From positions 4,240-68,239 of the forward strand of contig JAIXWI010000034.1 of the NCBI GenBank assembly GCA_027491355.1: DNA of 64,000 nucleotides. The letters are read 5' to 3'. Positions 12,871-56,844 of this stretch are shown piece by piece. Source of the stretch: Bacteroidota bacterium (GTDB lineage Bacteria; Bacteroidota; Bacteroidia; UKL13-3). Position numbers and translations under genes: made by a program. The notes under the pieces are model-generated. The model saw only the letters and a program-made list of their open reading frames with translations. It was not told where the DNA came from and made no database searches. How positions within the stretch are numbered: position 1 is the stretch's first letter; each line of letters opens with the position of its first letter.

Positions 12871-12871
12871 A

Positions 12872-13639
12872 TTACTTGAAGCGACCCCTCAACTTTATTT
12901 GGGTCAATCGACGCTTGGTATCTAAAGAAAAATCACCATCTAACATCCATTGGTAGTAACCCTTATCAGTTTCCAGTACCTCTTCTACCAATTTGTTTCT
13001 GTGCTTGCCAAAATTGAAAACCTCTTTACCCTCTTTATTGAATACCATTCTGCCAGCCAAGTCTACATTTTTGGTTTGACCCGAAAATTGGTGTAAGAAT
13101 TCAATGTCGTTTTGCAATTCTTGGTAATGGTTAATTTGAGCCTTCAATACCTCTAAAGTAGCTATGGTATCGTCTTCTGCATGGTGCGCGTTTTCGATGG
13201 TTTTATTACAATAAAACTTATAAGCTGCAGATAAGTTTCTAGGTTCCATGGTATGGTAAATTCTTTGCGCATCAATGAACCTTCTATTTTCTACATCAAA
13301 GTCTACACCTGCACGTAAAAACTCTTCTACCAAAAGCGGAAAATCGAATTTGTTAGAATTGAATCCAGCAAAATCACATCCTTTCATAAATTCGCCAAGT
13401 TCTTTTGCTACTTGAGAAAATGTAGGTGCGTCTGCAACATCGGCATCACTGATACCATGAATGGCTGTAGATTCAGGTGGAATTGGAATTCCTGGGTTAA
13501 TCTTCATCACCTTCAATTCCTCTTCACCATTTACATGAACTTTGATACAGGCTATTTCAACTATTCTGTCTGTAGAAATACTAATACCAGTTGTTTCTAA
13601 ATCAAAAACAACCAAAGGTCTTTTTAAGTTTAATTGCAT
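12872..13639 (-). CDS. DnaQ-like DEDDh 3'-5' exonuclease with a C-terminal DUF3820-like domain
   Basis: Exo I motif VVFDLETTG, Exo III motif HHAEDD, and a C-terminal FGKHRNKLVEEV...YYQWML motif. Confidence 0.7.
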   Translation of the reverse strand: MQLNLKRPLVVFDLETTGISISTDRIVEIACIKVHVNGEEELKVMKINPGIPIPPESTAIHGISDADVADAPTFSQVAKELGEFMKGCDFAGFNSNKFDFPLLVEEFLRAGVDFDVENRRFIDAQRIYHTMEPRNLSAAYKFYCNKTIENAHHAEDDTIATLEVLKAQINHYQELQNDIEFLHQFSGQTKNVDLAGRMVFNKEGKEVFNFGKHRNKLVEEVLETDKGYYQWMLDGDFSLDTKRRLTQIKLRGRFK

Positions 13640-20938: not shown

Positions 20939-23900
20939 ATGAGAAAAATAGTTTTGTTCACGGTGCTTTTGTTCTTTTTTCAACAACTCAAAGCACAAAC
21001 TATATATTGGAACCAAATTGATGAGCCTTCAAATGTAAATACTTCAGACAGGTGGATCATACCTGAAAAATACAGTGTTTTCGAATTGCAAATTGAAACA
21101 CTTAAAAAAATCTTGGAACAGTCTCCAGAAGAATACATGGGCACTCGTAGTGGAATTGTTATTCAAATCCCTATGCCAGATGGTAAACTTAAACCCTTTC
21201 AAGTTTACCACTCGCCAGTTATGGCACCAGAACTTGCCAAACAATTCCCAGCAATTGATACATGGCGAGGACAAGGCATTGAGGACCCTTCTGAAAGTGT
21301 TCATTTAGACATTACTCTAAAAGGATTTCATGCCATGGTACTCTCTCCAAATGGGACTTATTTTGTTGACCCATATGCAAATGGCAACACCCAATTTTAT
21401 ATCAGTTACTTCAAAAATGATTTGATAGCCAAAGCCAAATTTTTTGAAGAAGGTGTCTTAAAAAATACTACTATACAACCAACACCAAACAACAATACAC
21501 CCAATAATATTGTTACACCACCTGGTTCAACTATTCAAAATAGAAGCAATGGTTTAACTTTAAAAACATACCGTTTGGCTTTAGCTGCAACATTTGAATA
21601 CACTACATTTCAGGGTGGTACCGTTGCGCTGGCGCTTTCAGCAATGGTTACTTCAGTGAATAGAGTTGTTGGTGTGTACAGAAAAGAAGTTGGTGTTTCA
21701 CTCACCTTGGTTGCAAACACATCTAGCTTAATTTATACAACCGCTGCAGATCCTTACACCAATTCAAGTGGTTCAACCATGTTGTCTGAAAACATCAACA
21801 ATGTCAATACCATTATTGGATCAGCAAATTATGATATTGGACATGTATTTAGTACTGGTGGTGGAGGTGTAGCCTATTTAGCATCCGTTTGTACTGCTAA
21901 TAAAGCAGGTGGTGTTACTGGTTCAGCTTCACCTGTAAACGATGCATTTGACATTGACTATGTAGCGCATGAAATTGGGCATCAGTTTGGAGGAAACCAT
22001 ACCTTCAATGGAACAACAGGTAGCTGTTCAGGTTCAAACAGAAATGCATCTACAGCATACGAACCTGGAAGTGGAAGCACCATCATGGCATATGCTGGTA
22101 TTTGCTCAGGACAAAATTTACAACCAAACAGTGATCCTTATTTTCATACCATTAATTTTAATGAAATCATTACCAATATAACTACTGGTTCAGCTTCAAC
22201 ATGTGCAGTAAGTTCAGCCTCAAACAATCAAATTCCAACTTGCAATGTAGGAACCACCAGCTTTACCATACCTTTTGGAACGCCATTTACGTTAACAGGA
22301 ACAGGAAGCGACCCAGACAATGATGTCGTTACCTATTGTTGGGAACAAATGAATTTAGGCACAGCAACAGCCCCAAACACCCCTCCAAACCCTGGACCAA
22401 GGTTTAGAACTTACAACCCTACAACCAGCCCAAGTAGGACAATTCCACAATACAGTGCTTTGTTAAACAACACCGTTCCAGTGGGTGAAATTTTGTCAAC
22501 TGCTGCACAAACATTAACTTTCAGGCTAACTGTCAGAGACAACAGGAGCAATTGTGGTGGTGTATACTATGACCCTAACAATGTTACTGTTACTGTAGCC
22601 TCAACTGGTCCATTTTCAATTACCAGTAACCCATCATTTTGGGGTAAAAAAACAAACCAAACAGTTACCTGGAACTTAGCTTCAACCAATATTAGCCCTA
22701 TTAATTGCGCCAATGTAAAAATCTCTCTCTCCACAGACGGTGGTTTAACATTCCCTATTGTTTTAGCAAACAGTACCGCAAACGATGGAACTGAAACAGT
22801 AACTATTCCTGATATTACCACCCAAAATGCGAGATTAAGAGTGGAAGCCATAGGCAATATCTTTTTTGCAATCAATACTTCCAACTTTACCATAGACGAT
22901 CCAACCGCAGGAATGTTTGTAACTTTTGGAACCGGAACAGGTTCTAACACAGGTACCACCTACCCTGCTCCATATGGAAGTTTTTTTGGAGGTGCCAAAC
23001 ACCAATTAATTTACAGAGCATCGGAACTAACTGCAATGGGATTGAACGCTGGTGTCATTACACAATTTGGCTTCAATGTGAGCACACTTGTAAGTGGCAG
23101 TTTGACTTCATTTACAATAGGCATGAAAAACTCAACAGTTAATGATTTAACAAGTGCATGGCAAACAGGCTTCACAACGGTCTTAAACAGTTCTACTTTA
23201 ACTCCTAAAACGGGTTGGAATTTGCATACATTGAATGTTCCATTTTATTGGGATGGAACCTCAAATATTATTGTTGAGGTATGTTTTAACAATAACAATG
23301 CTGGAACCGCAAGCAGCACGCTAACCACTTTAACCACCGGTTTACCTACTGGTACATCAAGGTGGTATACTGCAGACAATACCGCAACTGTTTGTTCAGG
23401 AACAGCTGTTACCACAACTGGAAGTACAAGCAGACCCAACGCACGTTTATTCATCATCACAGAACCAACAGTTAACGCAAGCAATATTCAAGTTACCAAT
23501 ATTGGAAATACCTCTGCCACCATCAACTGGAGTATAGGCAATGGCAGAAAACGCATGGTTGTTGTAAGAGAAAGTTCTGTTTTAGCAATAGCACCTATTA
23601 ATTTCAACAATTATATTGCATCGCCTCAAATCAGTATGAGTCAGGTAACAGGCCTCAACAATTTTGTAGTGTACAATGATACCGGAAATACTGTTACTCT
23701 TTCGGGCTTGAGTCTTAACACCAACTATTCAATAGACATTTATGAATACAATGGAATCAATGGTAATGTTGTTTACAAAATGTCTCCAACTACTGGAACA
23801 TTCCAAACCATTGGCTCATGTGTTTTCCAAGTAAACAATGGGTTAGATTCCATACTAACTTGCTCTACAATTACCAATGTCGTATATCAATCTGGTTTTA

Positions 23901-25396
23901 CATTTGTTGCTGCACAATTTAAAACAAATGGTAATTGGCAAAACACAAACACCATTAACAACAATGGTTCAATTTTGGTTCCTGCAGCTCAAACTGGTTG
24001 GTACAAAATTCAAGTTACTGGAACTAACGGATGTATTGGTATTGACAGTGCTTACGTAACCATTGGCTCAATGGGTAAGCCTCTAATTCAGTTGTCAGGT
24101 GACAGTACTTTTTGTCAAGGAAATGCCATTACAATGAATGTGAACCCACAAAACAACGCCAGTTATAGATGGATAGAAACAACTTCCAATTCTTTGCTAG
24201 GAACAAATAGTAGTTTTTTAACAAACCAAGCTGGTAAGTATCGTTGTATTGTCACATCCATGTTCGGTTGCTCAGATACCACACGAGAGCAATTAGTAAC
24301 AGTAAACAACATCCCTAACATTGCCTATACTTTGGTATCAGGAAGTAGTTTCATTTGCAATACCTGTTCTGCTTCAGTTCAACTCAATAACCCAAGTGGC
24401 ACATTGTATACTTGGTACAAAAACAATGTTTTGTTTAAACAAGATACTTTTTCTAACACCATTTTAAATGATGCTGGCACTTATACCATTCAAGCAAAAA
24501 GCTTAGCTAATTGTAATAGCAATGTTTCAGCACCATTAAGAATTACCAAATTTTTTACTTCAATTGTCTTACCAGATTCTGCTAAAACTTGTCAATACGA
24601 CAGTATTTTACTCGAACCCGGCGATGGCTTTGTAGCTGTAAAATGGAATACACCTATGCCTCAAATGAGTGCAGCATATATGGTTCCAAACAACCCCGAT
24701 GACCCAGATGCTTTGGTAAATGGAACGCTCGTTGCAACTAAAACAGGTTGGTATTTCATTGAAGCCAAAACATTAAATGGAAACACCCTCAAAGACAGCG
24801 TATATGTTCAAATTGGTTGTAATGTGATACTGAATGTTAAGGTATTTATTCAATCCCTGTATTTAGGAAACCAAACCATGACCCCAGTATTATTGAATGC
24901 GGCTCAAAGTTTCTCAAGTAATGTAACAGATAGCATTGAAGTAGCATTGCATGAAACAACCGGAAGTTACAATCAAATTTTCAAGCAAAAAGGCATTGTA
25001 GATATCAACGGAAATATTCAATTAAACATACCCCCAACAACTTTAAACAACAACTATTATTTGGTTGTCAATTATAAAAACGCAATCAGCACTTGGAGTA
25101 AAAACCCAGTAACCATGTCTGCAATTACCAATTATGATTTTAGCGTTGCGGCTACACAGGCTTATGGAGACAACTTGATAGATGATGGAAATGGGGTATT
25201 TTTAATTTACAGTGGAGATATCAACCAAGATGGCTTTGTGGATGGAAACGATTTCATTGACCTTGATAATGACAATGCAAACTTCGTTTCAGGTTATGCC
25301 ATTACAGATGTAAATGGAGATGGCTTTGTGGATGGAAATGATTTTATCATTCTAGATAACAACAATGCCAATTTTATTGGTATTGTCAGACCCTAA
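20939..25396 (+). CDS. secreted reprolysin-like zinc metalloprotease (metzincin) with C-terminal dockerin-like Ca-binding repeats
   Basis: Signal peptide MRKIVLFTVLLFFFQQLKAQ. Metzincin zinc site HEIGHQFGGNH. Long Thr/Ser/Asn-rich beta-rich middle. Two C-terminal repeats D(I/V)N(Q/G)DGFVDGNDFI..D(N)..ANF. No T9SS CTD was detected. Confidence 0.7.
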   Translation: MRKIVLFTVLLFFFQQLKAQTIYWNQIDEPSNVNTSDRWIIPEKYSVFELQIETLKKILEQSPEEYMGTRSGIVIQIPMPDGKLKPFQVYHSPVMAPELAKQFPAIDTWRGQGIEDPSESVHLDITLKGFHAMVLSPNGTYFVDPYANGNTQFYISYFKNDLIAKAKFFEEGVLKNTTIQPTPNNNTPNNIVTPPGSTIQNRSNGLTLKTYRLALAATFEYTTFQGGTVALALSAMVTSVNRVVGVYRKEVGVSLTLVANTSSLIYTTAADPYTNSSGSTMLSENINNVNTIIGSANYDIGHVFSTGGGGVAYLASVCTANKAGGVTGSASPVNDAFDIDYVAHEIGHQFGGNHTFNGTTGSCSGSNRNASTAYEPGSGSTIMAYAGICSGQNLQPNSDPYFHTINFNEIITNITTGSASTCAVSSASNNQIPTCNVGTTSFTIPFGTPFTLTGTGSDPDNDVVTYCWEQMNLGTATAPNTPPNPGPRFRTYNPTTSPSRTIPQYSALLNNTVPVGEILSTAAQTLTFRLTVRDNRSNCGGVYYDPNNVTVTVASTGPFSITSNPSFWGKKTNQTVTWNLASTNISPINCANVKISLSTDGGLTFPIVLANSTANDGTETVTIPDITTQNARLRVEAIGNIFFAINTSNFTIDDPTAGMFVTFGTGTGSNTGTTYPAPYGSFFGGAKHQLIYRASELTAMGLNAGVITQFGFNVSTLVSGSLTSFTIGMKNSTVNDLTSAWQTGFTTVLNSSTLTPKTGWNLHTLNVPFYWDGTSNIIVEVCFNNNNAGTASSTLTTLTTGLPTGTSRWYTADNTATVCSGTAVTTTGSTSRPNARLFIITEPTVNASNIQVTNIGNTSATINWSIGNGRKRMVVVRESSVLAIAPINFNNYIASPQISMSQVTGLNNFVVYNDTGNTVTLSGLSLNTNYSIDIYEYNGINGNVVYKMSPTTGTFQTIGSCVFQVNNGLDSILTCSTITNVVYQSGFTFVAAQFKTNGNWQNTNTINNNGSILVPAAQTGWYKIQVTGTNGCIGIDSAYVTIGSMGKPLIQLSGDSTFCQGNAITMNVNPQNNASYRWIETTSNSLLGTNSSFLTNQAGKYRCIVTSMFGCSDTTREQLVTVNNIPNIAYTLVSGSSFICNTCSASVQLNNPSGTLYTWYKNNVLFKQDTFSNTILNDAGTYTIQAKSLANCNSNVSAPLRITKFFTSIVLPDSAKTCQYDSILLEPGDGFVAVKWNTPMPQMSAAYMVPNNPDDPDALVNGTLVATKTGWYFIEAKTLNGNTLKDSVYVQIGCNVILNVKVFIQSLYLGNQTMTPVLLNAAQSFSSNVTDSIEVALHETTGSYNQIFKQKGIVDINGNIQLNIPPTTLNNNYYLVVNYKNAISTWSKNPVTMSAITNYDFSVAATQAYGDNLIDDGNGVFLIYSGDINQDGFVDGNDFIDLDNDNANFVSGYAITDVNGDGFVDGNDFIILDNNNANFIGIVRP

Positions 25397-29592: not shown

Positions 29593-30327
29593 CTATTTCA
29601 TCAATTTCAATACCCTTTCAATGTCTTCAGGGGTATCAACGCAATGGCTATCAAATGTTGTTTCTACGCATTTGATTTTATAGCCCGCTTCTAACCACCT
29701 TAATTGCTCTAGGCTTTCAGCTTTTTCTAAGGCTGATACAGGTAATTTGGTAATGGCTTGCAACACATCTCGGCGGTAAGCATACATGCCCACATGCCTG
29801 TAATAGGAATGGTGTAAATGCCATTCAGCTTCTGGCTTACCTTTTACAAATGGTATCACCATGCGGCTAAAATACAAGGCTTCGTTTTCGTGGTTCAATA
29901 CAATTTTCACTTCACCTTGGTCAAATAAAAAGGCTGAATTGTCAACCTTGATCATTTGGGTGGCCAGTTCTGTTTGACCTTTACAAACCGCACCCAATTC
30001 ATCAATTTGCTGTGGGTCTAAAAAAGGTTCATCTCCCTGAATATTGATGACATAATTGAAATCACCGGCTACATTTTTAAACGCTTCGTAACACCTGTCC
30101 GTTCCACTTGGATGCTCCGCTTTGGTCATCACTACTTCTCCACCAAATGCTTTTACATGCGCTGCAATGCGTTCATCATCAGTTGCCACTACCAACTTGT
30201 CAATGGTTTTGGCTTGTGAGGCTTGTTCATACACCCTTCTGATCATGCTTTTACCTTCAATTACTACCAAAGGTTTTCCCGGAAAACGGGTACTGGCATA
30301 TCTGGCTGGTATTATTCCTAAAATCAT
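29593..30327 (-). CDS. kdsB: 3-deoxy-manno-octulosonate cytidylyltransferase (CMP-Kdo synthetase)
   Basis: MILGIIPARYASTRFPGKPL...VVATDDERI...IQGDEP motifs; 244 aa. Confidence 0.85.
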   Translation of the reverse strand: MILGIIPARYASTRFPGKPLVVIEGKSMIRRVYEQASQAKTIDKLVVATDDERIAAHVKAFGGEVVMTKAEHPSGTDRCYEAFKNVAGDFNYVINIQGDEPFLDPQQIDELGAVCKGQTELATQMIKVDNSAFLFDQGEVKIVLNHENEALYFSRMVIPFVKGKPEAEWHLHHSYYRHVGMYAYRRDVLQAITKLPVSALEKAESLEQLRWLEAGYKIKCVETTFDSHCVDTPEDIERVLKLMK

Positions 30328-30387: not shown

Positions 30388-32289
30388 TTGCGCATGATTT
30401 ATTTGAGAGCAGAAAATCTTTGCAGAAGATACGGAGAAAGAACCTTGTTTAAAAACCTAAATTTAAGCATTGCGAAGGGAGAAAGAATTGCATTGATTGC
30501 AAAAAACGGTACAGGAAAAAGTTCATTACTTGAAATTTTAACCGGAAAAGAAGAGTCGGATGAGGACGGAAAAGTCATCATCGATAAAAACATCACCTGG
30601 ACTTACCTACAACAAGAGCCTGTTTTTAACCCAAGACATACCGTTTTGGAGGCCATTTTCAATACTGAACATCCCAAGTTTAAAACCATTGCTGCTTTTG
30701 AACTCTTAACAGAAAAAATGGAACATGACTCCGAAAATGTTCAAATTCATGAAGAGATGCAAAAAGTAATGGAGGACATGGAATTGCATCAAGCCTGGGA
30801 CTTAGAAAACAAAGTTCAAACCATTTTAACTAAACTCAATTTACACCACCATTTAGAACAAACAGTAAACAGTTTAAGTGGTGGTCAAAAGAAACGTTTG
30901 GCCTTGGCACAGGTATTGATTCAAGAACCAGATTTTGTAATCATGGATGAACCTACCAACCATCTAGATTTACAAATGATTGAATGGTTAGAAGCTTGGC
31001 TACAGGCATTAGACTTAACCCTTTTATTGGTTACCCACGACCGTTATTTCTTGGATAAAATTTGCAATGAAATCATTGAAATTGATGAAGGGCAATTGTT
31101 CACCTACAAAGGCAATTATGCCTATTTCTTAGAAAAGAAAGAAATGCGTGAAACTTACCAAGCAAAAGAAGCAGATGCTGCACGTAAACTCGCTAAAAAA
31201 GAACTGGAATGGATGCGCAAACAACCCAAAGCCAGAACTACCAAAAGTAAAAGCCGTATAGATGCTTATTATGAATTGAAAGAGAAAGCAGCATACCAAA
31301 AAGACGATAGCCAAGTTGAAATTCATTTGCAAATGCAAAGACTGGGCACAAAAATTTTAGAGGTCAGCCATTTAGAAAAAAGATTTGGTGATTTGAGCAT
31401 TTGCGAAAACTTCACCCACTTATTTGTTCCGGGTGAACGCATTGGTATCATTGGTCAAAATGGGGTTGGAAAAAGTACTTTCCTCAACATGCTTTTGGGC
31501 ATAGAGAAACCTGATGGAGGGAAAATTTCAAAGGGCGATACCGTTAAATTTGGCTATTACAACCAGCAAGGCATTCAACTCAAAGAAGACAAAAGGGTAA
31601 TAGAAGTAATCACGGATATTGCCGAATACATTGAAGTTGGTAAAGGGGTAAAAATGACCGCGACCAATTTATTGAAACAATTTTTGTTTGATTCAAAAAA
31701 GCAATACAACTATGTGGGTTCCTTAAGCGGAGGAGAAAAAAGAAGGTTGTACTTATTAACCATCTTAATGCAACAACCTAATTTCTTGGTATTGGATGAA
31801 CCTACCAACGATTTGGATATTGATACCTTGAATGTATTGGAAGATTTTCTTTCGGCATACAATGGTTGTATCTTAATTGTTACCCATGACCGTTATTTCA
31901 TGGACAATTTGGTTGACTCCTTGTTTGTGTTTGAAGGCAATGGTAAAATCAGGTCATTCAATGGCAACTACCAAGAGTATTTGAATTCATTGGAAAATCC
32001 GAAAGAGGAAAAAGAAGCACCAAGCAAACCCTCTATTCAAAATAACACCACAATTAATTCAGAACCAGCAAGCCAATCTAAAAAGAAATTGAGCTATAAA
32101 GAGCAAAGAGAATTGGAACAATTAACTGAAGAGATTGAAATTTTGAGTAAGCAAAAACAGGTGCTTGAACAAAAACTACAAGAACAAGTTTCAGACCATG
32201 CAGCCCTTTTGCAATTGACACAAGATTATGAACTCATCAAACAAAAATTAGATGACAAAGAATTGCGTTGGTTAGAACTCACTGAATAA
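30388..32289 (+). CDS. ABC-F family ATPase, Uup-like (two ABC domains plus a C-terminal coiled-coil domain)
   Basis: Two Walker A motifs (AKNGTGKSS, GQNGVGKST), two LSGG signature motifs, and a K/E-rich coiled-coil tail. Confidence 0.8.
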   Translation: MRMIYLRAENLCRRYGERTLFKNLNLSIAKGERIALIAKNGTGKSSLLEILTGKEESDEDGKVIIDKNITWTYLQQEPVFNPRHTVLEAIFNTEHPKFKTIAAFELLTEKMEHDSENVQIHEEMQKVMEDMELHQAWDLENKVQTILTKLNLHHHLEQTVNSLSGGQKKRLALAQVLIQEPDFVIMDEPTNHLDLQMIEWLEAWLQALDLTLLLVTHDRYFLDKICNEIIEIDEGQLFTYKGNYAYFLEKKEMRETYQAKEADAARKLAKKELEWMRKQPKARTTKSKSRIDAYYELKEKAAYQKDDSQVEIHLQMQRLGTKILEVSHLEKRFGDLSICENFTHLFVPGERIGIIGQNGVGKSTFLNMLLGIEKPDGGKISKGDTVKFGYYNQQGIQLKEDKRVIEVITDIAEYIEVGKGVKMTATNLLKQFLFDSKKQYNYVGSLSGGEKRRLYLLTILMQQPNFLVLDEPTNDLDIDTLNVLEDFLSAYNGCILIVTHDRYFMDNLVDSLFVFEGNGKIRSFNGNYQEYLNSLENPKEEKEAPSKPSIQNNTTINSEPASQSKKKLSYKEQRELEQLTEEIEILSKQKQVLEQKLQEQVSDHAALLQLTQDYELIKQKLDDKELRWLELTE

Positions 32290-32997
32290 TCAGGGTGTTG
32301 GCGTTTCTTTGATACCTTGCTCAGCTACTGTAAAAAAGTGGGTGGAAAGGCTTTGTCTTTGGGTAATATAACTGGTATAATTGCCATGGTAGTTTGTTCT
32401 TTCTCTCATAATGGCATCATAGTTACCGCTTAAGCCTATGAGCATTTCACAGGCTTCTCTTACTGCAAAATTACCACTTTCATGACCAGTTACATAGTCT
32501 GCCAAGTTGTTTTGTACCACATAATGCTTAAACAAAGGATTGGCTTTGCGGTTGATTAAAATGCGCAATCCACAGGCGGATGCAATACTCAAATCCAATA
32601 CATCATCAAAAAAATAGCATACCTCGTGCATGGCCAATTCATGTTCATGACAAAAATGCTGCAGGGCATCTATTTTATGGGCTATTTTATAATATGCCGA
32701 TTGAAAATGCTCTCTTTGGGCAAAATAAAATGCTTGTTCGTTTTTCTCTCCTGAAATGATTGCAGCCAGAGGCATTTCATTGTTTTTATAAAAATGGGCG
32801 TACCTCAATAAGTTGGTTCCCATGCTATCCGCTTCATTGAAATTGCTGCTATTATTGGCATTTTTAGCTGCATCGTTGAATACACCATCCCAATCAAATA
32901 CAAATGCTTTTATTTGATTCAATTTTTCTACAATGGCTCTGGGTCTTTGAACAAAAACACCTCCAATGGCCTCAAATTCATTTACAATTGTTTGCAT
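32290..32997 (-). CDS. HAD-IIIA phosphatase, KdsC-like (Kdo-8-phosphate phosphatase) with an N-terminal extension
   Basis: HAD motif I FVFDWDGVF. C-terminal ADYVTGHESGNFAVREACEMLIGLSG closely parallels the KdsC ADYVT..GG.GAVREVCDLLL block. Context: kdsA, kdsB. Confidence 0.6.
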   Translation of the reverse strand: MQTIVNEFEAIGGVFVQRPRAIVEKLNQIKAFVFDWDGVFNDAAKNANNSSNFNEADSMGTNLLRYAHFYKNNEMPLAAIISGEKNEQAFYFAQREHFQSAYYKIAHKIDALQHFCHEHELAMHEVCYFFDDVLDLSIASACGLRILINRKANPLFKHYVVQNNLADYVTGHESGNFAVREACEMLIGLSGNYDAIMRERTNYHGNYTSYITQRQSLSTHFFTVAEQGIKETPTP

Positions 32998-33014: not shown

Positions 33015-33044
33015 TAAAAAAAGGAGGTTGAAGCCTCCTTTTTA
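33015..33044 (-). terminator. rho-independent terminator (minus orientation) after the Tal-CBS gene
   Basis: AGGAGG-TTGAAG-CCTCCT hairpin with a T-run on the minus strand. Confidence 0.6.
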
Positions 33045-33061
33045 CTTATTTATATTGTGAA

Positions 33062-34072
33062 TTAAGATTCTAAATCTTGGATGTCTAACATGCCTACTGG
33101 TTTGCCATTTTCTGTTACCAAAATGGTATCAACTTTGGTTGATTTGAAAACCACTGCAGCATCGTTCAACAAAGCGTTTGAATCAATTGAAACAGCAGTA
33201 CCGTATTCAAAATCACCCATTTTCTTAGCCAATACATCTCTGCCATCGTTTTGGATTTTTCTGCGTAAATCGCCATCGGTGAATACCCCTTTTAAAGAGC
33301 CATCTGAATTGATCACAGTAATGGCACCAAACCCAAATTCAGTCATTTTGATGATGGCATCAGACAAATTCGTATTGACATCAATTGTTGGATTGACACC
33401 ATTCAATACTTCTTTTACCCTTACGGTCATTAAACGGGTATCTCTGATGAATTGATCGGTTCCAACTGTCGTGAAATGATTTTCTGTCAACTGTTTCATG
33501 ATTTTCAATGGAACAGTGATGGTATGCACTCCCAAGTTTAAAGCATTTCTGATATGCTCCATGGTTCTAACCGATGAGAACATCACTTTGGTATCGTAAC
33601 CATAATGGTCTACAGCTGAAACGATTTGACTTACTAAATCCAAAGCATCATGGCCTTGGTCTTGTAACCTGCCTACCAATGGGCATACATAAGTAGCACC
33701 TGCATGCATAGCCATGTATGCTTGTTGCAAAGTGTAAACCAAATGTACATTTACTAAATATCCTTTGCTACGCAATAATTTACAAGCTCTTACACCTTCT
33801 AATGATACTGGAATTTTAAATACTGTTTTTTTAGGGTCTAAACCCAATGCCAATTGTCTTTCTGCTTCTTTTAACACATCTTCTGCTGTATCTCCTAAAG
33901 CTTCAATTTGAAGTACAGGTACCATTTTAGACAATTTTACAATCATCCCGTCAATATCTGTAATCCCTTCCCTTTGCATAAATGTCGGGGTAGTGGTTAG
34001 GCCATTTAAAAAGCCCAATTTAAAACCTTCTTCAATCTCTTTCAGATTGGCTGAGTCTAAATATAATTCCAT
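33062..34072 (-). CDS. fusion protein: transaldolase/fructose-6-phosphate-aldolase (Tal/Fsa) catalytic domain plus a C-terminal KdsD-type CBS pair
   Basis: The first ~215 aa are colinear with small Tal/Fsa enzymes: MELYLDSANL with the Asp, GLTTTP, Schiff-base Lys in TVFKIP, NVHLVYT, AGATYVCPLVGRL, GHDALDL. The last ~120 aa are two CBS motifs including GVFTDGDLRR, which is near-identical to KdsD's GIFTDGDLRR. Confidence 0.7.
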   Translation of the reverse strand: MELYLDSANLKEIEEGFKLGFLNGLTTTPTFMQREGITDIDGMIVKLSKMVPVLQIEALGDTAEDVLKEAERQLALGLDPKKTVFKIPVSLEGVRACKLLRSKGYLVNVHLVYTLQQAYMAMHAGATYVCPLVGRLQDQGHDALDLVSQIVSAVDHYGYDTKVMFSSVRTMEHIRNALNLGVHTITVPLKIMKQLTENHFTTVGTDQFIRDTRLMTVRVKEVLNGVNPTIDVNTNLSDAIIKMTEFGFGAITVINSDGSLKGVFTDGDLRRKIQNDGRDVLAKKMGDFEYGTAVSIDSNALLNDAAVVFKSTKVDTILVTENGKPVGMLDIQDLES

Positions 34073-34150
34073 AATTAATTCTTGCTAATAACGCACAATA
34101 ATAAGCCAAATTTATGAATTCAAAAACCCTCTTGTTACAAGGGCTTTTGA

Positions 34151-34981
34151 TTACTTTCTGAATTTCACTTCAGTTTGGTGAATTTCAATCAATGGTTTTA
34201 AAAACTCTTCCAAATCATCAATACACAATTGCGAAGCCGCATCGCACAATGCTTTTGATGGCTCTGGGTGGGTTTCAATGAAAATACCATCTATACCTGC
34301 AGCTACACCTGCCCTACTCAAAACTGGCAAAAATTCTCTGGCTCCTCCATTTGGATCTGCGCTAGGTGTGCCATATTTCCTTACACAATGCGTTACATCA
34401 AATACCACTGGGTAGCCAATATTTCTGAGGTGGTAGAAACTTCTTGGATCAACAATTAAATCGTTGTAACCAAATGTAAATCCTCTTTCTGTTAAAATCA
34501 CTTGGTCGTTACCCGATTCAACACATTTGGCAACAGGATGCTTCATGTTTTCAGGTGCTAAAAACTGACCATGCTTGATATTCACAACCTTACCTGTTTT
34601 TGCAGCTGCTACCATTAAAGTACTTTGCATACACAAATAAGCTGGAATTTGAATCACATCTACTACTTCACCAGCAGCAGTTGCTTGTTCTGGGTAATGT
34701 ACATCTGTTAAAATAGGGAAACCAAATTGTTCTCTGATTTTAGCCAACAATTTAACACCCTTGTCTAATCCTGGTCCATCGTAGTATTTTAAACTACTGC
34801 GGTTGTCTTTTTGAAAAGACGATTTATAAATTACTTCTATTTTCAATCTTTCAGAAATCTCTTTCAGCATTTCTGCTGTTTTCATCATGATTGATTCATC
34901 TTCAATTACACATGGGCCTGAAATCAGAAACAAGTTATCTGAGCCACATTCAATATTTCCTACTTTTACAATTTTTGTCAT
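34151..34981 (-). CDS. kdsA: 3-deoxy-8-phosphooctulonate synthase (Kdo8P synthase)
   Basis: 276 aa; FKSSFQKDNRSS, GPGL, ILTDVH, VVDVIQIPA, NIKHGQF, FDVTH and AAGIDGIFIETHP are colinear with KdsA. Confidence 0.85.
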   Translation of the reverse strand: MTKIVKVGNIECGSDNLFLISGPCVIEDESIMMKTAEMLKEISERLKIEVIYKSSFQKDNRSSLKYYDGPGLDKGVKLLAKIREQFGFPILTDVHYPEQATAAGEVVDVIQIPAYLCMQSTLMVAAAKTGKVVNIKHGQFLAPENMKHPVAKCVESGNDQVILTERGFTFGYNDLIVDPRSFYHLRNIGYPVVFDVTHCVRKYGTPSADPNGGAREFLPVLSRAGVAAGIDGIFIETHPEPSKALCDAASQLCIDDLEEFLKPLIEIHQTEVKFRK

Positions 34982-34992
34982 TTGTTTAACAA

Positions 34993-36075
34993 TTACATTC
35001 TTCTAAATAAAGACTCAATAAATCCGATATCAATTTTTTCTTTCCAATCAGTACCAATGGCATGGTTCCACATGTGGTGCAAATTATACGCAACATGTGC
35101 CATTGCTGTAATTTCTTGGTCTGTCCAATTCTTGCTCAAACCTGTAGGTAAAACAATCTTGTGTTTGGCCAACATGCTGTTAAATTCTGCAACACCTTCC
35201 GGATAAAAATCACTGAGGTGTTGAAAAGCCAAACAATTGGCATAGCAGTGTTTTTCACCAAAAATTTTACTCAATCCGTAACTCAAAGCATGGCAAACAC
35301 CAACTTCACTGTAGGTAAGGCTCAAACCACCCATCAAAGAGGCAACCATTAATTTGTCATCATTTTCTGGTGATTGACCAGCCTGTTCTCCTAAATAGAT
35401 TTCTCTGCATAATTTCAGCGATTGCTCGCCGTAAGCCATGCTATAAGCATTGTTTAAAATACCATCACGGCTTTCAATGCAATGAATAAAAGTATCCATT
35501 CCGGTATAAAACCATTTGTCAACAGGAACAGAAGCAGTCAATTCAGAATCTAAAATCACTTGGTCAAAAATGGTCCATTCGCATTTCAAACCTAATTTTT
35601 TCTCAGGACCAGTTAATACAGCAGTCATGCTACATTCGGCTCCAGTTCCTGAAATTGTAGGTACGCCCACATGGTAAACACCTGGTTTCTTAATTAGGTT
35701 TAAACCTTGGTATTGAACTGAAGAACCTTCATTGGTTAGCATCAAGGCTGTTGCTTTTGCTATGTCCATGATACTGCCACCACCAATACCTATTAAACCA
35801 GCAGGAAGTCCGGATTTGGCTAATATTTCATCTCTCAATTGGTCTATTTGCTCGGTTGTAGGTTCATGTGGGTCTACATCAATGAAATAAACCAAGTCAT
35901 TCGCTTTTGAAGGCAATTGCTGAGCCAATGCTTTGTTTTTGAAAAAGGCATCAACTACAAATACCATGTAACCATTGTTCAGGTGACGCTTTTCTGCTAA
36001 AATTTCATCCAGTTGGGCGAAGCTTCCTCTTCCAAAAACTGTTTTTTCTATGCTTTTAAAATTCTTGTGACTCAT
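34993..36075 (-). CDS. iron-containing alcohol dehydrogenase / dehydroquinate-synthase-like superfamily oxidoreductase, KdnB-like
   Basis: GIGGGSIMDIAKA glycine-rich NAD motif and His-containing metal ligand regions. It lies 11 bp upstream of kdsA and 10 bp downstream of a DegT aminotransferase. Confidence 0.65.
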   Translation of the reverse strand: MSHKNFKSIEKTVFGRGSFAQLDEILAEKRHLNNGYMVFVVDAFFKNKALAQQLPSKANDLVYFIDVDPHEPTTEQIDQLRDEILAKSGLPAGLIGIGGGSIMDIAKATALMLTNEGSSVQYQGLNLIKKPGVYHVGVPTISGTGAECSMTAVLTGPEKKLGLKCEWTIFDQVILDSELTASVPVDKWFYTGMDTFIHCIESRDGILNNAYSMAYGEQSLKLCREIYLGEQAGQSPENDDKLMVASLMGGLSLTYSEVGVCHALSYGLSKIFGEKHCYANCLAFQHLSDFYPEGVAEFNSMLAKHKIVLPTGLSKNWTDQEITAMAHVAYNLHHMWNHAIGTDWKEKIDIGFIESLFRRM

Positions 36076-36085
36076 GCAATAAAAC

Positions 36086-37282
36086 TTATTTCAAAACTGA
36101 TTGTATTGCTTTGCCAATTGCAGCAACCAAAGCTTTCAATTCTTCCTCAGTCCATGTAGCTTTGATACTGAATGAAATTAACCTTCCTATGGTACTTTGG
36201 GTTTTTGGCAAATCTAGGTTAGAGTAATCTTGAGGCGCCCCTAATAATTGTACATTTGTTTTTGCAGCAACCCTACCTTCTTTGATGTGGTCCCATTGGT
36301 TGATAAAATGATACATATTGGTGTACCAATAATTGAAGCCTGTTATGCCATTTTGGTTGAATGCGTTGACTGTTTTTTGAGCCAAGATCGTATCTGGCAA
36401 AAGAATGTTTAAAAAGGTAGCCGAATCACCATCTTTATCTGGAATTTCAGCAAACGATACACCTTTTATTTTGCCTAATTCTGCCATCATAAACTTTTTA
36501 TGGCTATTGTTCAAAGTTCGGATTTGAGGCACTCTTCTCGTTTGGGCCAAACCTACAGCAGCATGTAACTCAGAAATGCGGTAATTGAATCCTAGTACAG
36601 GATGATTTTCCATGCCTCTGTTATTGCCTTTGTGGTCATGCCCATGGTCTGCATAATTATCAGCCAATTTGTATGCTTTCTCACTATTGGTAACCATTAC
36701 ACCTCCTTCACCAGCGGTTGCAATTTTAAAAAAATCAAAACTGTAACATCCAGTTGTTCCCCATAAACCAGTGGAAACGCCTTTGTAACTTGCAGCCATT
36801 GCTTGTCCTGCATCTTCAACTAAAACCAAATTATTTTCTAAAATTACTGGCATGATTTCATCCATGTTGGCCATTTGACCACACATATGAACCAATAAAA
36901 CGGCTTTGGTTTTTGGGGTGATTGCTTTTTTTATACCTGCTGCACTAAGACAAAGTGTTTCATCAATTTCTGCAAATACTGGTAAAGCGCCTGCAAAAAT
37001 AACTGCTTCAACTGATGCTATGTAAGTGAAAGGTGGAACGATTACCTCGTCTCCTGCACCAATGCCAGCTGCTGCCAGAGCACAGGAAACAGCAGTTGAA
37101 CCACTTGATACTGCATGTGCGTATTTTGCACCTACCAGGTTGGCTACTTCTTTTTCAAATTCTTTTGCTTTCCAAATATTGTTTCGTTGAGCATCATGGT
37201 TGTATCTGAATAAAATGCCCGTTTCTAATACGTCGTTGATTTCTTTTTTCTCTTCTGCTCCAAAAAATTCGGTTCCTGCCAT
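36086..37282 (-). CDS. DegT/DnrJ/EryC1/StrS-family PLP-dependent aminotransferase, KdnA-like
   Basis: 398 aa; SSGSTAVSCALAAAGIGAGDEVIVPPFTYIASVEAV and a downstream PLP-Lys region typical of the sugar aminotransferase fold. Confidence 0.7.
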   Translation of the reverse strand: MAGTEFFGAEEKKEINDVLETGILFRYNHDAQRNNIWKAKEFEKEVANLVGAKYAHAVSSGSTAVSCALAAAGIGAGDEVIVPPFTYIASVEAVIFAGALPVFAEIDETLCLSAAGIKKAITPKTKAVLLVHMCGQMANMDEIMPVILENNLVLVEDAGQAMAASYKGVSTGLWGTTGCYSFDFFKIATAGEGGVMVTNSEKAYKLADNYADHGHDHKGNNRGMENHPVLGFNYRISELHAAVGLAQTRRVPQIRTLNNSHKKFMMAELGKIKGVSFAEIPDKDGDSATFLNILLPDTILAQKTVNAFNQNGITGFNYWYTNMYHFINQWDHIKEGRVAAKTNVQLLGAPQDYSNLDLPKTQSTIGRLISFSIKATWTEEELKALVAAIGKAIQSVLK

Positions 37283-37344
37283 AAATTAAAAATTTCTGCA
37301 AATTTACGAAATATTACAGCATTTAAAAGCATCATTGCAAGTAT

Positions 37345-38355
37345 TTATGGAACCATTAATTGGCTGATAATAGCTTGTTTATCGCCTGAAATATGAACTT
37401 TTGAAGAATTTACTTTTGACTGCAAACCGTTGTTATATGCTTTATCGTAGTAATACAAAACTTCATTGACCCATGCATTGTAATTGCTGTTTTGTAAGGC
37501 TTCAACTGCTATACGGGTTCTTAAATCACCCAATTTTTTACTAATCTGCTTTGTTGCTTGAATCAATTCATCTTTATTATACTTGGCATAGTTTTCAATG
37601 ATGGTATTGATTCTTGACGCTAAATCTTTTTCTATGAAATACAATGGCGCCTTTCGTATTTGTTGGAAAAAAAGGTCTGGTATTTGAATTTTACCAATCA
37701 ACCTGCTTTCATCCTCCACCCAAATGCATTTTTCTCTGTTTTGAAGGTGCAACAGAGAAAACAAATTATTTTCGAACTGTTCTTGAGTAGGTTGGAGTCC
37801 TTTACCTATTCCTCCAAATGCAGATCCTCTATGATTTGCCAACCCTTCTAAATCAATAACTTGCTCTCCATTAAGTCTCAAACTGTAAAGGATGTCTGTT
37901 TTGCCACTTCCTGTATAACCACCAATGACTTTTATTGGATAAGGAACCTCAAAACCCTTTTGAACAAATTGCCTGTATGCTTTGTATCCTCCTTCAATGA
38001 TGGTTACATCAAAACCTGCTGATAACAATAGGTTTCCCAAAATTTGACTACGCAACCCACCCCTCCAACAATGAACTATAAGCTTATTTTTTCCAAACGC
38101 CATGTGAGCATTCTTGATCATTTTGGCAAATTTTGGGGCAACCAATTCATATCCCAGCACCACAGCTTCAAAACTTCCTTTTGTTTTGTAACAAGTTCCT
38201 ACAATTATGCGTTCTTGGTTGTTGAGTAATGGAAAAGAAACTGCTCCAGGAATATGACCTTGTAAAAATTCTGCTTCACTCCTAGCATCCAATAAACAGA
38301 CATGTTCAGTTCGTTGGCTGTATGCTGCAATATCGATTTGCTGGATAGTTCTCAT
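37345..38355 (-). CDS. mnmH: tRNA 2-selenouridine synthase (rhodanese plus P-loop)
   Basis: Rhodanese active-site CWRGGLRS, P-loop GYTGSGKT; 336 aa. Confidence 0.75.
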   Translation of the reverse strand: MRTIQQIDIAAYSQRTEHVCLLDARSEAEFLQGHIPGAVSFPLLNNQERIIVGTCYKTKGSFEAVVLGYELVAPKFAKMIKNAHMAFGKNKLIVHCWRGGLRSQILGNLLLSAGFDVTIIEGGYKAYRQFVQKGFEVPYPIKVIGGYTGSGKTDILYSLRLNGEQVIDLEGLANHRGSAFGGIGKGLQPTQEQFENNLFSLLHLQNREKCIWVEDESRLIGKIQIPDLFFQQIRKAPLYFIEKDLASRINTIIENYAKYNKDELIQATKQISKKLGDLRTRIAVEALQNSNYNAWVNEVLYYYDKAYNNGLQSKVNSSKVHISGDKQAIISQLMVP

Positions 38356-38403: not shown

Positions 38404-39930
38404 ATGGAAGAAAAAGTACTCATCATTGATTTCGGTTCTCAATATACACAACTTATAGCTAGAAGGCTAAGAGAATTGAACGTTTACTCTGAAATACATC
38501 CTTGTACAAACTTACCAACTCTGGATGAACAAACCAAGGCTGTTATTCTGAGTGGAAGTCCCTACAGTGTAAGCGATGGCTTGTTACCTGCAGTTGATTT
38601 GAGTATTTACAGAGGTAAATTACCTTTATTGGGGGTTTGCTATGGAGCACAATATTTGGCTCATGCCAATGGTGGTTTTGTCATGCCTTCAAAAATCAGA
38701 GAATATGGGAGAGCCAATTTGAGCATGGTAAATGACGCCATTTTGTTCGAGGGCATTGCTCTTAATTCTCAAGTTTGGATGAGCCATGGCGACACCATCA
38801 AAGAAATACCAGAGGGTTTTGAAACCATTGCAAGTACTACGTCGGTTGAAAATGCTGCCTTTAAAGTTAAAGGAGAAGCAACTTATGGCATTCAGTTTCA
38901 TCCAGAGGTAACACACAGTACAGATGGAAAAAAATTATTGTTCAATTTTATCAGTAAAATAGCCGGACTTCAACAAAACTGGAACCCAGATCATTTTATT
39001 GCATCCGCTACTCAAGAAATCAAAGAAAAAATTGGATCCGATAAAGTAATCATAGGATTGTCGGGTGGAGTAGATTCTTCAGTAGCCGCTATTTTGCTCA
39101 AAAAAGCCATTGACAAACAATTGATTGGTATATTCATAGACAATGGATTACTCAGAAAAGATGAATTTGAACAAGTATTAGAGGCATACAAAGAAATGGG
39201 CTTGCATGTCATTGGTGTAGATGCAAAATCTCGTTTTTTAAATGAATTAAAAGGAATCAGCGACCCAGAACATAAAAGAAAAACTATTGGCAGAGTTTTT
39301 ATTGAAGTTTTTGAAGAAGAGGCAAATAAATTAGAGGGCATCAAATGGTTGGCTCAAGGCACCATCTACCCTGATGTCATAGAAAGTGTAAGTGTAAAAG
39401 GGCCATCGGCAACCATTAAATCTCATCACAATGTGGGCGGATTGCCAGAGAAAATGCATTTAAAAATTGTAGAGCCTTTGAGAATGCTATTCAAAGATGA
39501 AGTTAGGAATGTTGGGCATGCGCTTGGAATTGATAAAATGATTTTAAACAGACATCCATTTCCAGGACCAGGTTTAGCCATTCGTATTTTAGGTGATGTA
39601 ACTACCGATAAGGTAAGAATTCTTCAGGAAGCTGATGCCATTTTTATTGGTGAATTGAAAACTAAAAACTTGTACCCACAAGTTTGGCAAGCAGGTGCAA
39701 TTTTTTTACCCGTGCAATCTGTAGGTGTTATGGGTGACGAAAGAACTTATGAACATGTCATTTGTTTGAGAGCTGTTACTTCCGTTGATGGTATGACTGC
39801 TGATTTTTGTCATTTACCACATGATTTCTTGAGTTTAGTCGCCAATCGCATCATCAATGAAGTAAAAGGAATAAATCGAGTAGTCTATGATATCAGCTCA
39901 AAACCACCCGCAACGATTGAATGGGAATAA
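38404..39930 (+). CDS. guaA: GMP synthase (glutamine-hydrolysing)
   Basis: GATase domain (GVCYGAQ, H..E), PP-loop SGGVDSSV, C-terminal dimerisation domain; 508 aa. Confidence 0.9.
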
Positions 39931-41086
39931 ACTCTTAATTGTATTTTTAAGTATTTTCTGCCTGCTTTCACAAATTAAAGAAGCTTGTTCTCAAAATACT
40001 TCATATACCAAAGACACCTTGCACCTAGCTGTGCTAATGCCATTTTGCAGTAAAGAAATTTTGGCTGACGAACTCAGCCCAAAATCAGCATTGGGTAATG
40101 CCTGTCGTTCCTATTTTGAGGGCTTAACAATAGGTTTAGACAGCATGTCTAAAAATGGCATTCATATCATTACGCATGTATTTGATACCAAAAATGACAC
40201 CCTTTATTTTAAACAATTGCTTAAAAAAAATGAGGTATTGAATGCCAATTTGATCATTGGACCTGTTGTAGCAGTTGGTCAACAAATTATGAAAAAATTT
40301 AGCGACGAAGCGCATATTTATCATGTTAGTCCTTTGCTTACTTTAACTAAATCTAAAATCGAAGACCCCTATTTGATTTGCATGAACCCTGATTTAGAAT
40401 CTTATGCAGATATCTATTTAAAGCAATGTTATCAATCTGGTCAAACTGATATCAACCTAGTTGTATTTTCAGGCAAAGGCAAAAACGACAAAATCATTGC
40501 AAACAGACTCAATAAAATAAAATCTGAATACCCTAGTTTCAGCATACAATGTTTAGATATCGATAAAAATATCCATTACAAAAACTACTATCAGTTGAAC
40601 AAAACCAATTTGGTTTGGATAGATTCAGAAAACGAATTTCAAGTAAATAGCACCCTAAAAATATTGGCCGACACTACACAATTCATAGACATTCAAGTAA
40701 TAGGCACAAAAAAATGGCTCGACTACAATGCCAATAATTACCCCTTATGGAAAAAATTAGATGTTACCCTTTTGAGTCCTTATTTTTTGGAAACAACTGG
40801 TAAACTTACAACTCAATTTATTGAGCTTTTCAAAGAAATTTATAACAGAGAACCAGATGAATATGCAGTTGCTGGTTATGATCAAGCTATCCTTTTAATT
40901 GATGCATTGGCTAAAAACAATGGAAAATTTAGGGTTGATCAAAACAAAAAGAATGAAGCATTGGTAGGTTCAGAATATCTGATTGGTAGCAAACCACATA
41001 ACAAAGGCTACCAAAACAATTACCTCAATCAATGTAAATTCAACGAGGAATTTATGTGGATCAATGCTGCAAAAACCACTAAATAA
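39917..41086 (+). CDS. periplasmic-binding-protein type 1 (LivK/ANF-receptor-like) domain protein, orphan
   Basis: With the TTG at 39917 the N-terminus [19 protein letters not shown] is signal-like; the ORF track start at 39887 overlaps guaA by 44 bp. [10 protein letters not shown] block is typical of PBP1 N-termini. Confidence 0.45.
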
Positions 41087-46237: not shown

Positions 46238-46975
46238 TTACTTTTTAGATTGACTCAAATTGAATATGATTCCTGTTCCAAACTGAATGCAAGTAAACGG
46301 AACCTTCAATGAAGAATTTGAATTGGTTGCAGAGGCACCACTTGCGTCAGTAATTTTTATAATACCAAAATCAGGAAAACTTGTCATCAAATCAGCATTC
46401 ATTTGAAATGCGATGCTTTCATTGATTGGAATTGAAAAACCAAATCCAACACAAAATAGCTCTTTCACAACTGAAGAGGCATTCCATTTTAACAACACAG
46501 AATCGTTTAATATGAGGTTGTTTCCAGGACTGTTCATCCAACTCACTCCTGCGCCTATTTTAGAGTACATGGCATAACCTGCGTTTACCTTTGAAAACTT
46601 AAATCCACCTATTAAACTGAATTGCGACCAACTAGAGGTTGACGTAATGTTACTTACATCTTTATTACCCACTTTTACCAATTTTGTAAAATCAGCTTGA
46701 TTAACTGAATTGGTGTTATAATTAGCCACTATGAAGTAGCCAATAGCTGGTTTAACTGCTTGTTCGTATTGTGTTGTTATAAAAGAACCTGTTTGAGCAA
46801 AACCATTTTCAAAGAGTGGGAAATCCGTTTTTCCATAATTTGAAATGGGCATTGATAAACCCGCATGAATACTTAATTGCTGTGCATTCACTGATTTATT
46901 TAGCAGAAAGCAAAAACAAACAACAATAAGCAAAAAGGTTTTTTGTAAACTTGTATCAGGATTGTACTTATACAT
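46238..46975 (-). CDS. outer-membrane beta-barrel protein (porin-like, hypothetical)
   Basis: Signal peptide, alternating hydrophobic beta-strand pattern, C-terminal aromatic-terminated strand (IFNLSQSKK region). Confidence 0.45.
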   Translation of the reverse strand: MYKYNPDTSLQKTFLLIVVCFCFLLNKSVNAQQLSIHAGLSMPISNYGKTDFPLFENGFAQTGSFITTQYEQAVKPAIGYFIVANYNTNSVNQADFTKLVKVGNKDVSNITSTSSWSQFSLIGGFKFSKVNAGYAMYSKIGAGVSWMNSPGNNLILNDSVLLKWNASSVVKELFCVGFGFSIPINESIAFQMNADLMTSFPDFGIIKITDASGASATNSNSSLKVPFTCIQFGTGIIFNLSQSKK

Positions 46976-50560: not shown

Positions 50561-50580
50561 ATTGTAGGCGTAAACCTTGA

Positions 50581-50616
50581 TGCAGTACAATGATAATTTG
50601 TTATCATTGTACTGCA
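50581..50616. repeat. perfect 16-bp inverted repeat (TGCAGTACAATGATAA-TTTG-TTATCATTGTACTGCA) whose last base is the A of the GT9 start codon
   Basis: Read directly from the sequence; no U-tract follows the hairpin. Confidence 0.6.
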
Positions 50617-53040: not shown

Positions 53041-53045
53041 AATAA

Positions 53046-56844
<3,799 letters not shown>

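Follow-up and report, generated by a model that had tools for sequence, protein, structure and literature searches.

A Bacteroidota Kdo operon headed by orthologues of Shewanella kdnA and kdnB: predicted 8-amino-Kdo synthesis and a candidate transaldolase-fold enzyme of the Kdo pathway

Introduction

The sugar Kdo (3-deoxy-D-manno-octulosonate) is the most conserved sugar of lipopolysaccharide (LPS), and its 8-amino form, 8-amino-3,8-dideoxy-manno-octulosonate (Kdo8N), is treated in the literature found as a chemotaxonomic hallmark of one marine genus; a paper from 2019 describes Kdo8N as a hallmark of Shewanella. The subject here is a 64,000-nucleotide stretch of DNA from the metagenome-assembled genome (MAG) of a freshwater member of the Bacteroidota (assembly GCA_027491355.1, contig JAIXWI010000034.1 of 70,373 bp, positions 4,240 to 68,239), below called the window, in which two genes stand directly upstream of kdsA. 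An earlier note on this DNA had taken the two genes for counterparts of kdnB and kdnA of Shewanella and had predicted Kdo8N in the LPS of the organism. The question raised by the locus is whether this identity holds, and what the two genes would then add to the Kdo pathway of these bacteria.

In a review that treats the work of Gattis et al. 2013 (PMC4402001), the Shewanella genes are described as converting Kdo directly to Kdo8N before incorporation. By the same account, their expression in E. coli leads to Kdo8N2-lipid A, and a Shewanella mutant withstands polymyxin and bile salts less well. A review of the subfamilies of iron-containing alcohol dehydrogenases (Fe-ADHs) gives KdnB as the sole characterised member of its subfamily.

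Identity of the two genes

Both proteins were compared with all PDB sequences. The 360-residue protein, which carries the Pfam domains Fe-ADH (PF00465, 89.6 bits) and ADH_Fe_C (PF25137, 39 bits), aligned over residues 1-360 with S. oneidensis KdnB (5k8c) at 418.9 bits and 53% identity, and end to end with a second Shewanella-like entry, 3rf7, at 420.5 bits. The next alcohol dehydrogenase in PDB that is not a KdnB reached 90.1 bits. An exhaustive phmmer search with the KdnB query covered 1.84 billion representatives; with phmmer, KdnB-like proteins scored 185-374 bits and generic Fe-ADHs about 105-125 bits. In an alignment of Bacteroidota KdnB with two Shewanella proteins, the motif GGGS (G98-G-G-S101) and the residues D194, H198, H262 and H276 are invariant. 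We take Asp194, His198, His262 and His276 to be the canonical metal ligands of group III alcohol dehydrogenases and GGGS to be the dinucleotide-binding motif. A four-residue insertion (AGQS, AGQT or AGQN; residues 232-235 of the window KdnB) is present in all aligned Bacteroidota KdnB proteins and absent from the two Shewanella proteins.

The 398-residue protein matched the Pfam family DegT_DnrJ_EryC1 (PF01041) at 244.8 bits. It aligned with S. oneidensis KdnA (5k8b) over residues 1-393 at 428.4 bits, with 49% identity and no gaps over 392 residues, while the next DegT enzyme in PDB, a perosamine synthetase, gave 165.9 bits over residues 41-253 only. The KdnA alignment takes in the C-terminal domain, where other DegT enzymes fail to align. 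As a fold-type I PLP (pyridoxal 5'-phosphate) enzyme it has the catalytic PLP lysine, K186 of the SFDxxK motif, which stands at the identical position in 5k8b, as does the aspartate of the EDA motif (D157).

The closest solved relatives of the two proteins are therefore KdnA and KdnB of S. oneidensis, over the full length and far above all others, in agreement with the reading of the earlier note. That note had also named the opposite outcome, in which the best matches would go to unrelated sugar aminotransferases and alcohol dehydrogenases with likeness at the family level only; this is not what was found: the matches to KdnB (418.9 bits, the next enzyme 90.1) and to KdnA (428.4 bits, the next enzyme 165.9) run end to end. 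On their sequences, we judge the two window genes to be truly orthologous to kdnA and kdnB of Shewanella.

A related alternative is that the two genes lie beside kdsA by chance and encode an ordinary alcohol dehydrogenase and a nucleotide-sugar aminotransferase from some unrelated pathway to O-antigen or a secondary metabolite. Both families are very large, and the best matches to named NCBIfam models are with LegC/PseC-type aminotransferases and sulfoacetaldehyde reductase, at scores that all fall far short of the cut-offs. The bit scores to KdnA and KdnB are nonetheless 2.6-fold and 4.6-fold above those to any other solved family member, at full length; the pairing of kdnA with kdnB and their kds neighbourhood are kept in dozens of families of two phyla; and no nucleotide-sugar genes are adjacent to kdnAB. 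We regard a chance neighbourhood as very improbable, and the PDB scores together with the conserved kds synteny effectively refute it.

Close homologues are already labelled KdnB or 8-oxidase by the JGI pipelines, and NCBI gives the name KdnB to proteins of Shewanella, Corallincola and Aliikangiella. The assignment lies within the reach of routine annotation, and a report of these genes in Bacteroidota appears to be new. A "kdnB" named in Leptospira (PMC8510873) is an automatic annotation in a table of virulence genes and was dismissed.

The operon in the window

As shown in Table 1, kdnA and kdnB are followed on the same strand by kdsA, by a gene for a transaldolase/FSA-fold domain joined to a CBS pair (here called TAL-CBS), by a gene for a KdsC-like phosphatase and, beyond an ABC-F gene on the other strand, by kdsB. 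The gaps are 10 bp between kdnA and kdnB and 11 bp between kdnB and kdsA, and ORF coordinates and gaps agree exactly with the description in the earlier note of an Fe-ADH gene and a DegT aminotransferase gene 10-11 bp apart directly upstream of kdsA.

Table 1. Coordinates of the operon genes, putative signals and other open reading frames (ORFs) in the window. PLP, pyridoxal 5'-phosphate; HAD, haloacid dehalogenase.
Feature	Position	Strand	Length	Basis or remark
kdsB, CMP-Kdo (predicted CMP-Kdo8N) synthetase	29593-30327	-	244 aa	NCBIfam NF003952, 320 bits (cut-off 193)
ABC-F gene	30388-32289	opposite to operon		separates kdsB from the rest of the operon
KdsC-like HAD phosphatase (predicted Kdo-8-phosphate phosphatase)	32290-32997	-	235 aa	weak NCBIfam KdsC matches
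Palindromic G+C-rich hairpin and T-run (T7), AAAAAGGAGGCTTCAACCTCCTTTTTTT	33018-33043	-		after TAL-CBS
TAL-CBS, transaldolase/FSA-fold domain and KdsD-type CBS pair	33062-34072	-	336 aa	Pfam TAL_FSA and two CBS
Second TAAATTTG, possible internal promoter	34107-34114	-		in the 78-bp kdsA/TAL-CBS gap; consensus match only
kdsA, Kdo-8-phosphate synthase	34151-34981	-	276 aa	NCBIfam NF003543, 352.4 bits (cut-off 242); Pfam DAHP_synth_1
kdnB orthologue, predicted Kdo 8-oxidase (EC 1.1.3.48), group III (Fe-ADH) fold	34993-36075	-	360 aa	Pfam Fe-ADH and PDB 5k8c match
kdnA orthologue, predicted PLP-dependent Kdo8N transaminase (EC 2.6.1.109)	36086-37282	-	398 aa	Pfam DegT and PDB 5k8b match
TAAATTTG, matches the Bacteroidetes -7 promoter consensus TAnnTTTG	37299-37306	-		consensus match only
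mnmH, tRNA 2-selenouridine synthase	37345-38355	-		358 bits (cut-off 241)
Very large ORF	8548-12870	+	1440 aa
Very large ORF	20939-25396	+	1485 aa
Mid-sized ORF	39887-41086	+		no Pfam match
Mid-sized ORF	46238-46975	-		no Pfam match
GT9 (heptosyltransferase-family) gene, then two co-oriented ORFs	50577-54773	+	ORFs 424 and 575 aa	the two ORFs without Pfam match

In many relatives kdsB is contiguous with the operon, unlike in the window. The window kdsB shares 48% identity with the Shewanella baltica kdsB that comes after kdnB. Directly upstream of kdnA stands mnmH, and this neighbour recurs in the seven most closely related loci and in one further locus, L185.

The KdsC-like protein scored 51.5 bits with the NCBIfam KdsC model (cut-off 208) and 31.8 bits with the YrbI subfamily model (cut-off 107), and the Pfam scan gave no match to it. 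Its DxDGV motif is present as FDWDGV, and the JGI name for members of its cluster is KDO 8-P phosphatase. The protein is unusually divergent, with 41-69% identity among relatives against 70-90% for the neighbouring genes, and is about 50 residues longer than classical KdsC.

Distribution and gene order in relatives

A scan of GTDB, with one genome per species, detected KdnB relatives in at least 580 genomes. The 80 best KdnB loci were used as the sample for synteny counts, with those loci as denominators that had enough sequence to judge. All 80 come from Bacteroidota of freshwater, soil and wastewater, and they include Chitinophagaceae, Cyclobacteriaceae, Cytophagales, Spirosomataceae and Saprospiraceae; cultured carriers are Runella defluvii DSM 17976, Runella aurantiaca YX9, Spirosoma flavum KCTC 52490, Spirosoma validum BT704, Chryseolinea serpens DSM 24574 and Siphonobacter.

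Of 74 loci, 72 have kdnA upstream of kdnB and in the same orientation; kdsA lies directly downstream of kdnB in 56 of 72. TAL-CBS is found in 43 of 64 kdnB loci, a kdsC-like gene in 37 of 62 and kdsB in 21 of 60, so that the common architecture in Bacteroidota reads kdnA-kdnB-kdsA-TAL-CBS-kdsC-kdsB. Across these families, identity to the window proteins is 67-88% for KdnA and 70-88% for KdnB. An alternative layout, in which kdnB and kdnA are divergent from a kdsB-kdsA-TAL-CBS-kdsC-like operon, occurs in the metagenome loci L095, L132, L134, L159 and L194; the kdsB of this layout is only 45-48% identical to that of the window. A Flavipsychrobacter MAG (L075) has a second kdsA paralogue at 12563-13342, about 3.7 kb downstream of the operon kdsA, at 49% identity. 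The gaps in the loci of Runella and Spirosoma were searched for a third conserved partner, for example an N-acyltransferase, but the genes there (DUF6169, signal peptidase II and RsgA) are unrelated.

Outside the Bacteroidota, Shewanella baltica OS185 (L081) has kdnA-kdnB-kdsB and Hydrogenovibrio crunogenus (CP032096; L083, 4795-9144) has kdnA-kdnB-kdsB-waaA. Orthologues 66-72% identical to S. oneidensis KdnB are present in Thiomicrospira, Hydrogenovibrio, Thiomicrorhabdus and Sulfurivirga. The cluster kdnA-kdnB-kdsB-waaA occurs in these sulfur-oxidising Gammaproteobacteria, and one homologue is attributed to a MAG of Spirochaetales; Kdo8N may therefore occur in further lineages besides Shewanella.

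The window and Shewanella share the two folds, the protein lengths (360 against 356 residues for KdnB, 398 against about 396-403 for KdnA) and the order of kdnA before kdnB, co-oriented with genes of Kdo activation. They differ in that Shewanella, a marine gammaproteobacterium, has only kdsB after kdnAB, whereas in the freshwater Bacteroidia of the window kdsA, TAL-CBS and the kdsC-like gene follow and kdsB stands further on; moreover, Kdo8N was demonstrated chemically in Shewanella and is predicted for the window organism. The cluster of the Hydrogenovibrio/Thiomicrospira type likewise has kdnA-kdnB directly before genes of the Kdo pathway, but these are kdsB and the Kdo transferase gene and not kdsA and kdsC, and TAL-CBS is lacking. 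The conserved order of kdnA-kdnB followed by kds genes in Bacteroidota matches both clusters and bears out the synteny that the earlier note had proposed to look for. Its claim that the same gene triad exists in Shewanella stands for the linkage of kdnA-kdnB with a Kdo gene and fails for kdsA, the Shewanella gene being kdsB. Because kdsA is not in the kdnA-kdnB-kdsB cluster of Shewanella, it is a feature of the Bacteroidota that the pair heads an operon with kdsA.

The nearest characterised relatives lie in Gammaproteobacteria, and the pair could on that account be a decaying, non-functional remnant of a horizontally acquired cluster. This we consider very improbable and the least credible of the alternatives: the ORFs are intact and of full length with all catalytic residues, their G+C content of about 0.37 is the same as in the remainder of the window, and amino-acid identity stays at 70-88% across Bacteroidota families. 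This last point indicates purifying selection on both KdnA and KdnB.

Predicted synthesis of Kdo8N

The genes of the operon suggest the following pathway. KdsA would join arabinose-5-phosphate and phosphoenolpyruvate to Kdo-8-phosphate, and the KdsC-like phosphatase would release Kdo, exposing the 8-hydroxyl. KdnB, a metal-containing enzyme of the group III alcohol dehydrogenase fold, would oxidise the hydroxyl at C8 to the aldehyde, and KdnA, with PLP as cofactor and glutamate as donor, would transaminate the aldehyde to Kdo8N. KdsB would then turn Kdo8N into the activated CMP-sugar, from which it would be transferred to lipid A. The substrate of KdnB would be free Kdo and not Kdo-8-phosphate, because the 8-phosphate must come off first. 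KdnB is reportedly a metal- and O2-dependent oxidase, said to have been crystallised with tightly bound NAD(H) and zinc, and KdnA is reported to use glutamate. The Bacteroidota carriers belong to groups that we take to be aerobic, which would fit an O2-requiring KdnB step.

We consider it probable that kdnA and kdnB, an addition at the 5' end of the Kdo operon, make Kdo8N. We are somewhat less confident that Kdo8N is placed in the lipid A-core of this organism. The comparison shows similarity at the level of orthologues, conserved catalytic and ligand residues, and a gene order with Kdo genes that is kept across hundreds of genomes; from it we infer what the enzymes do, that Kdo8N goes into LPS and not into another glycan, and that it affects the charge and barrier of the envelope.

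Several points weigh against this prediction. The searchable literature reports Kdo8N from Shewanella only, and the chemistry was done only there. At 49-53% identity, a shift of substrate or acceptor is formally conceivable, and it is presumed that KdsB and the Kdo transferase accept the amino sugar. NCBIfam has no model that captures KdnA or KdnB, all matches being below the cut-offs, a result that neither supports nor refutes the assignment, and NCBI names the Bacteroidota homologues only "iron-containing alcohol dehydrogenase family protein". Among the genes of the 64-kb window there is no waaA or other Kdo transferase gene. Finally, with the second kdsA of the Flavipsychrobacter locus in mind, some genomes may run a dedicated Kdo8N branch beside ordinary Kdo, perhaps to build a glycan that is not the LPS core.

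The last two points also speak for a different destination of the product, in which the pair would make Kdo8N or a close analogue for another glycan, such as a capsule or O-chain, or would convert only part of the Kdo pool while the inner core keeps ordinary Kdo. The second kdsA hints at duplicated Kdo branches, and about half of the operons with TAL-CBS and Kdo genes are without kdnAB (16 of 34, see below), from which the amino modification would be dispensable in the group. On the other side, kdnAB in the window and most relatives share the orientation of the kdsA, kdsC and kdsB genes, seemingly the housekeeping ones, and almost adjoin them, the Hydrogenovibrio cluster runs on into the gene for the lipid A Kdo transferase, waaA, and the Shewanella product is a residue linked to lipid A. 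We therefore hold such a destination to be rather unlikely, though it is the most plausible of the alternatives to Kdo8N in the lipid A-core.

The gene TAL-CBS

Residues 1-212 of TAL-CBS form a domain of the short transaldolase/FSA fold, with B. subtilis Tal (3r8r) as best PDB match at 132 bits; the score with the NCBIfam fsa/talC model (TIGR00875) was 161 bits, below the cut-off of 246. Residues about 215-334 form a CBS pair, with the CBS pair of arabinose-5-phosphate isomerase (4o9k) as best PDB match at 54 bits. The pair carries the motif GVFTDGDLRR, and the region matched positions 153-267 of the kpsF model TIGR00393 with an E value of 4e-16. No SIS domain was detected in TAL-CBS by Pfam or NCBIfam. 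A sequence taken as that of E. coli KdsD was used as tblastn query against 1.81 Mb of fetched loci: its CBS half gave 154 matches, in TAL-CBS genes, at 28-34% identity, and its SIS half gave none. A kdsD of the SIS type was sought in the window, in the loci without TAL-CBS and in all fetched loci, and none was found, although whole genomes may still have one.

The neighbourhood of the gene was surveyed in 120 metagenome loci anchored on TAL-CBS itself. Its direct downstream neighbour is a kdsC-like gene in 58 of 68 loci, and its direct upstream neighbour is kdsA in 49 of 78. Of the 34 loci with 3.6 kb or more of upstream sequence, 18 have kdnA/B and 16 lack them. Because kdsA and kdsC flank TAL-CBS with or without kdnAB, TAL-CBS belongs to the general Kdo module, and kdnAB are an optional addition at its 5' end.

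TAL-CBS has features of two known families. It resembles the KdsD/KpsF/GutQ isomerases, which consist of a SIS domain and a CBS pair, in its KdsD-type CBS pair and in its position beside kdsA and kdsC, where kdsD often sits. It differs from them in that a TIM barrel of the transaldolase/FSA fold replaces the catalytic SIS domain, and since the SIS domain is absent, TAL-CBS is not a member of the KdsD family. With the short (type 5) transaldolases and FSA (3r8r, T. maritima 1vpx and E. coli FsaA 1l6w) it shares the fold, the Schiff-base lysine, Asp6, the equivalent of Glu60 and the phosphate-binding Arg/Ser; the fused CBS pair, the score below the equivalog cut-off and three replacements in the active site set it apart. 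These replacements (TTNP to TTTP, NxTL to NVHL and SPF/Y to CPL; by residue, Asn to Thr, Thr to His and Phe/Tyr to Leu) are invariant in two sets of 44 and 98 TAL-CBS members; the search pattern already required the His in the second of these sets, though not in the first. The Schiff-base Lys, Asp6 and the Glu are likewise invariant in both sets, down to 58% identity.

Canonical short transaldolases, with the motifs TTNPS, NCTLVF and SPFIGR and without CBS domains, share contigs with TAL-CBS in L131 (12061-12708, minus strand) and L191 (1195-1863, minus strand). A role of TAL-CBS as the housekeeping transaldolase was considered and is unlikely in view of these genes; because a canonical Tal coexists with it in both loci, TAL-CBS is an additional, specialised paralogue.

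In these operons arabinose-5-phosphate isomerase is the sole step of the Kdo pathway without a gene, and TAL-CBS is the sole gene without a step. The CBS pair of KdsD (4o9k) is reported to bind CMP-Kdo, and that of TAL-CBS is presumably regulatory. TAL-CBS is a candidate for an undescribed enzyme of the Kdo pathway. Our leading hypothesis for it, held tentatively and with more doubt than belief, is that it supplies or gates arabinose-5-phosphate. A re-tooled Schiff-base domain of the transaldolase fold would then replace the SIS domain of KdsD while the KdsD CBS pair is kept, and arabinose-5-phosphate would be supplied or controlled by a chemistry other than isomerisation, for example by aldol formation from glycolaldehyde and glyceraldehyde-3-phosphate, as FSA can perform it. 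In synthetic pathways, FsaA serves to interconvert arabinose-5-phosphate and glycolaldehyde plus glyceraldehyde-3-phosphate (PMC9947464). A weakness of the hypothesis is the physiological source of glycolaldehyde, and a single-domain SIS isomerase elsewhere in the genome could supply arabinose-5-phosphate instead. No description linking a transaldolase-CBS protein to kdsD or to arabinose-5-phosphate was found in the literature, and TAL-CBS is a more novel lead than kdnAB.

Putative signals and other features of the window

The upstream one of the two TAAATTTG motifs in Table 1 lies about 17 nt 5' of the kdnA ATG, inside the 62-bp gap between mnmH and kdnA. Motifs of the TAnnTTTG type number 42 on the operon strand in 64 kb. 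Promoters of Bacteroidota follow another consensus than the sigma-70 type; a scan with the sigma-70 consensus gave 41 sites against 31±6 expected. The hairpin and T-run 3' of TAL-CBS look like an intrinsic terminator, and terminator-like sites in the region numbered 8 against a shuffle expectation of 7.8, which is no excess. The GT9 gene and the two ORFs that follow it are possibly further genes of the LPS core.

Significance

Kdo8N, reported until now from Shewanella, is probably much more widespread, to judge from the distribution of kdnA and kdnB. In a combined reading, aerobic Bacteroidota (Chitinophagales and Cytophagales) and sulfur-oxidising Gammaproteobacteria would commonly modify their lipid A-core with Kdo8N, and TAL-CBS would be an undescribed enzyme of the Kdo pathway; we think its parts unlikely to hold all together. 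The prediction reaches cultured type strains and so is directly testable. TAL-CBS in place of kdsD, if our hypothesis is true, could supply a missing piece in the acquisition or control of arabinose-5-phosphate by these bacteria. A positive charge beside lipid A is predicted as a widespread feature of the envelope and would, if true, bear on resistance to cationic peptides and detergents, on the innate immune recognition of environmental Bacteroidota, on phage receptors and on metabolic labelling based on Kdo.

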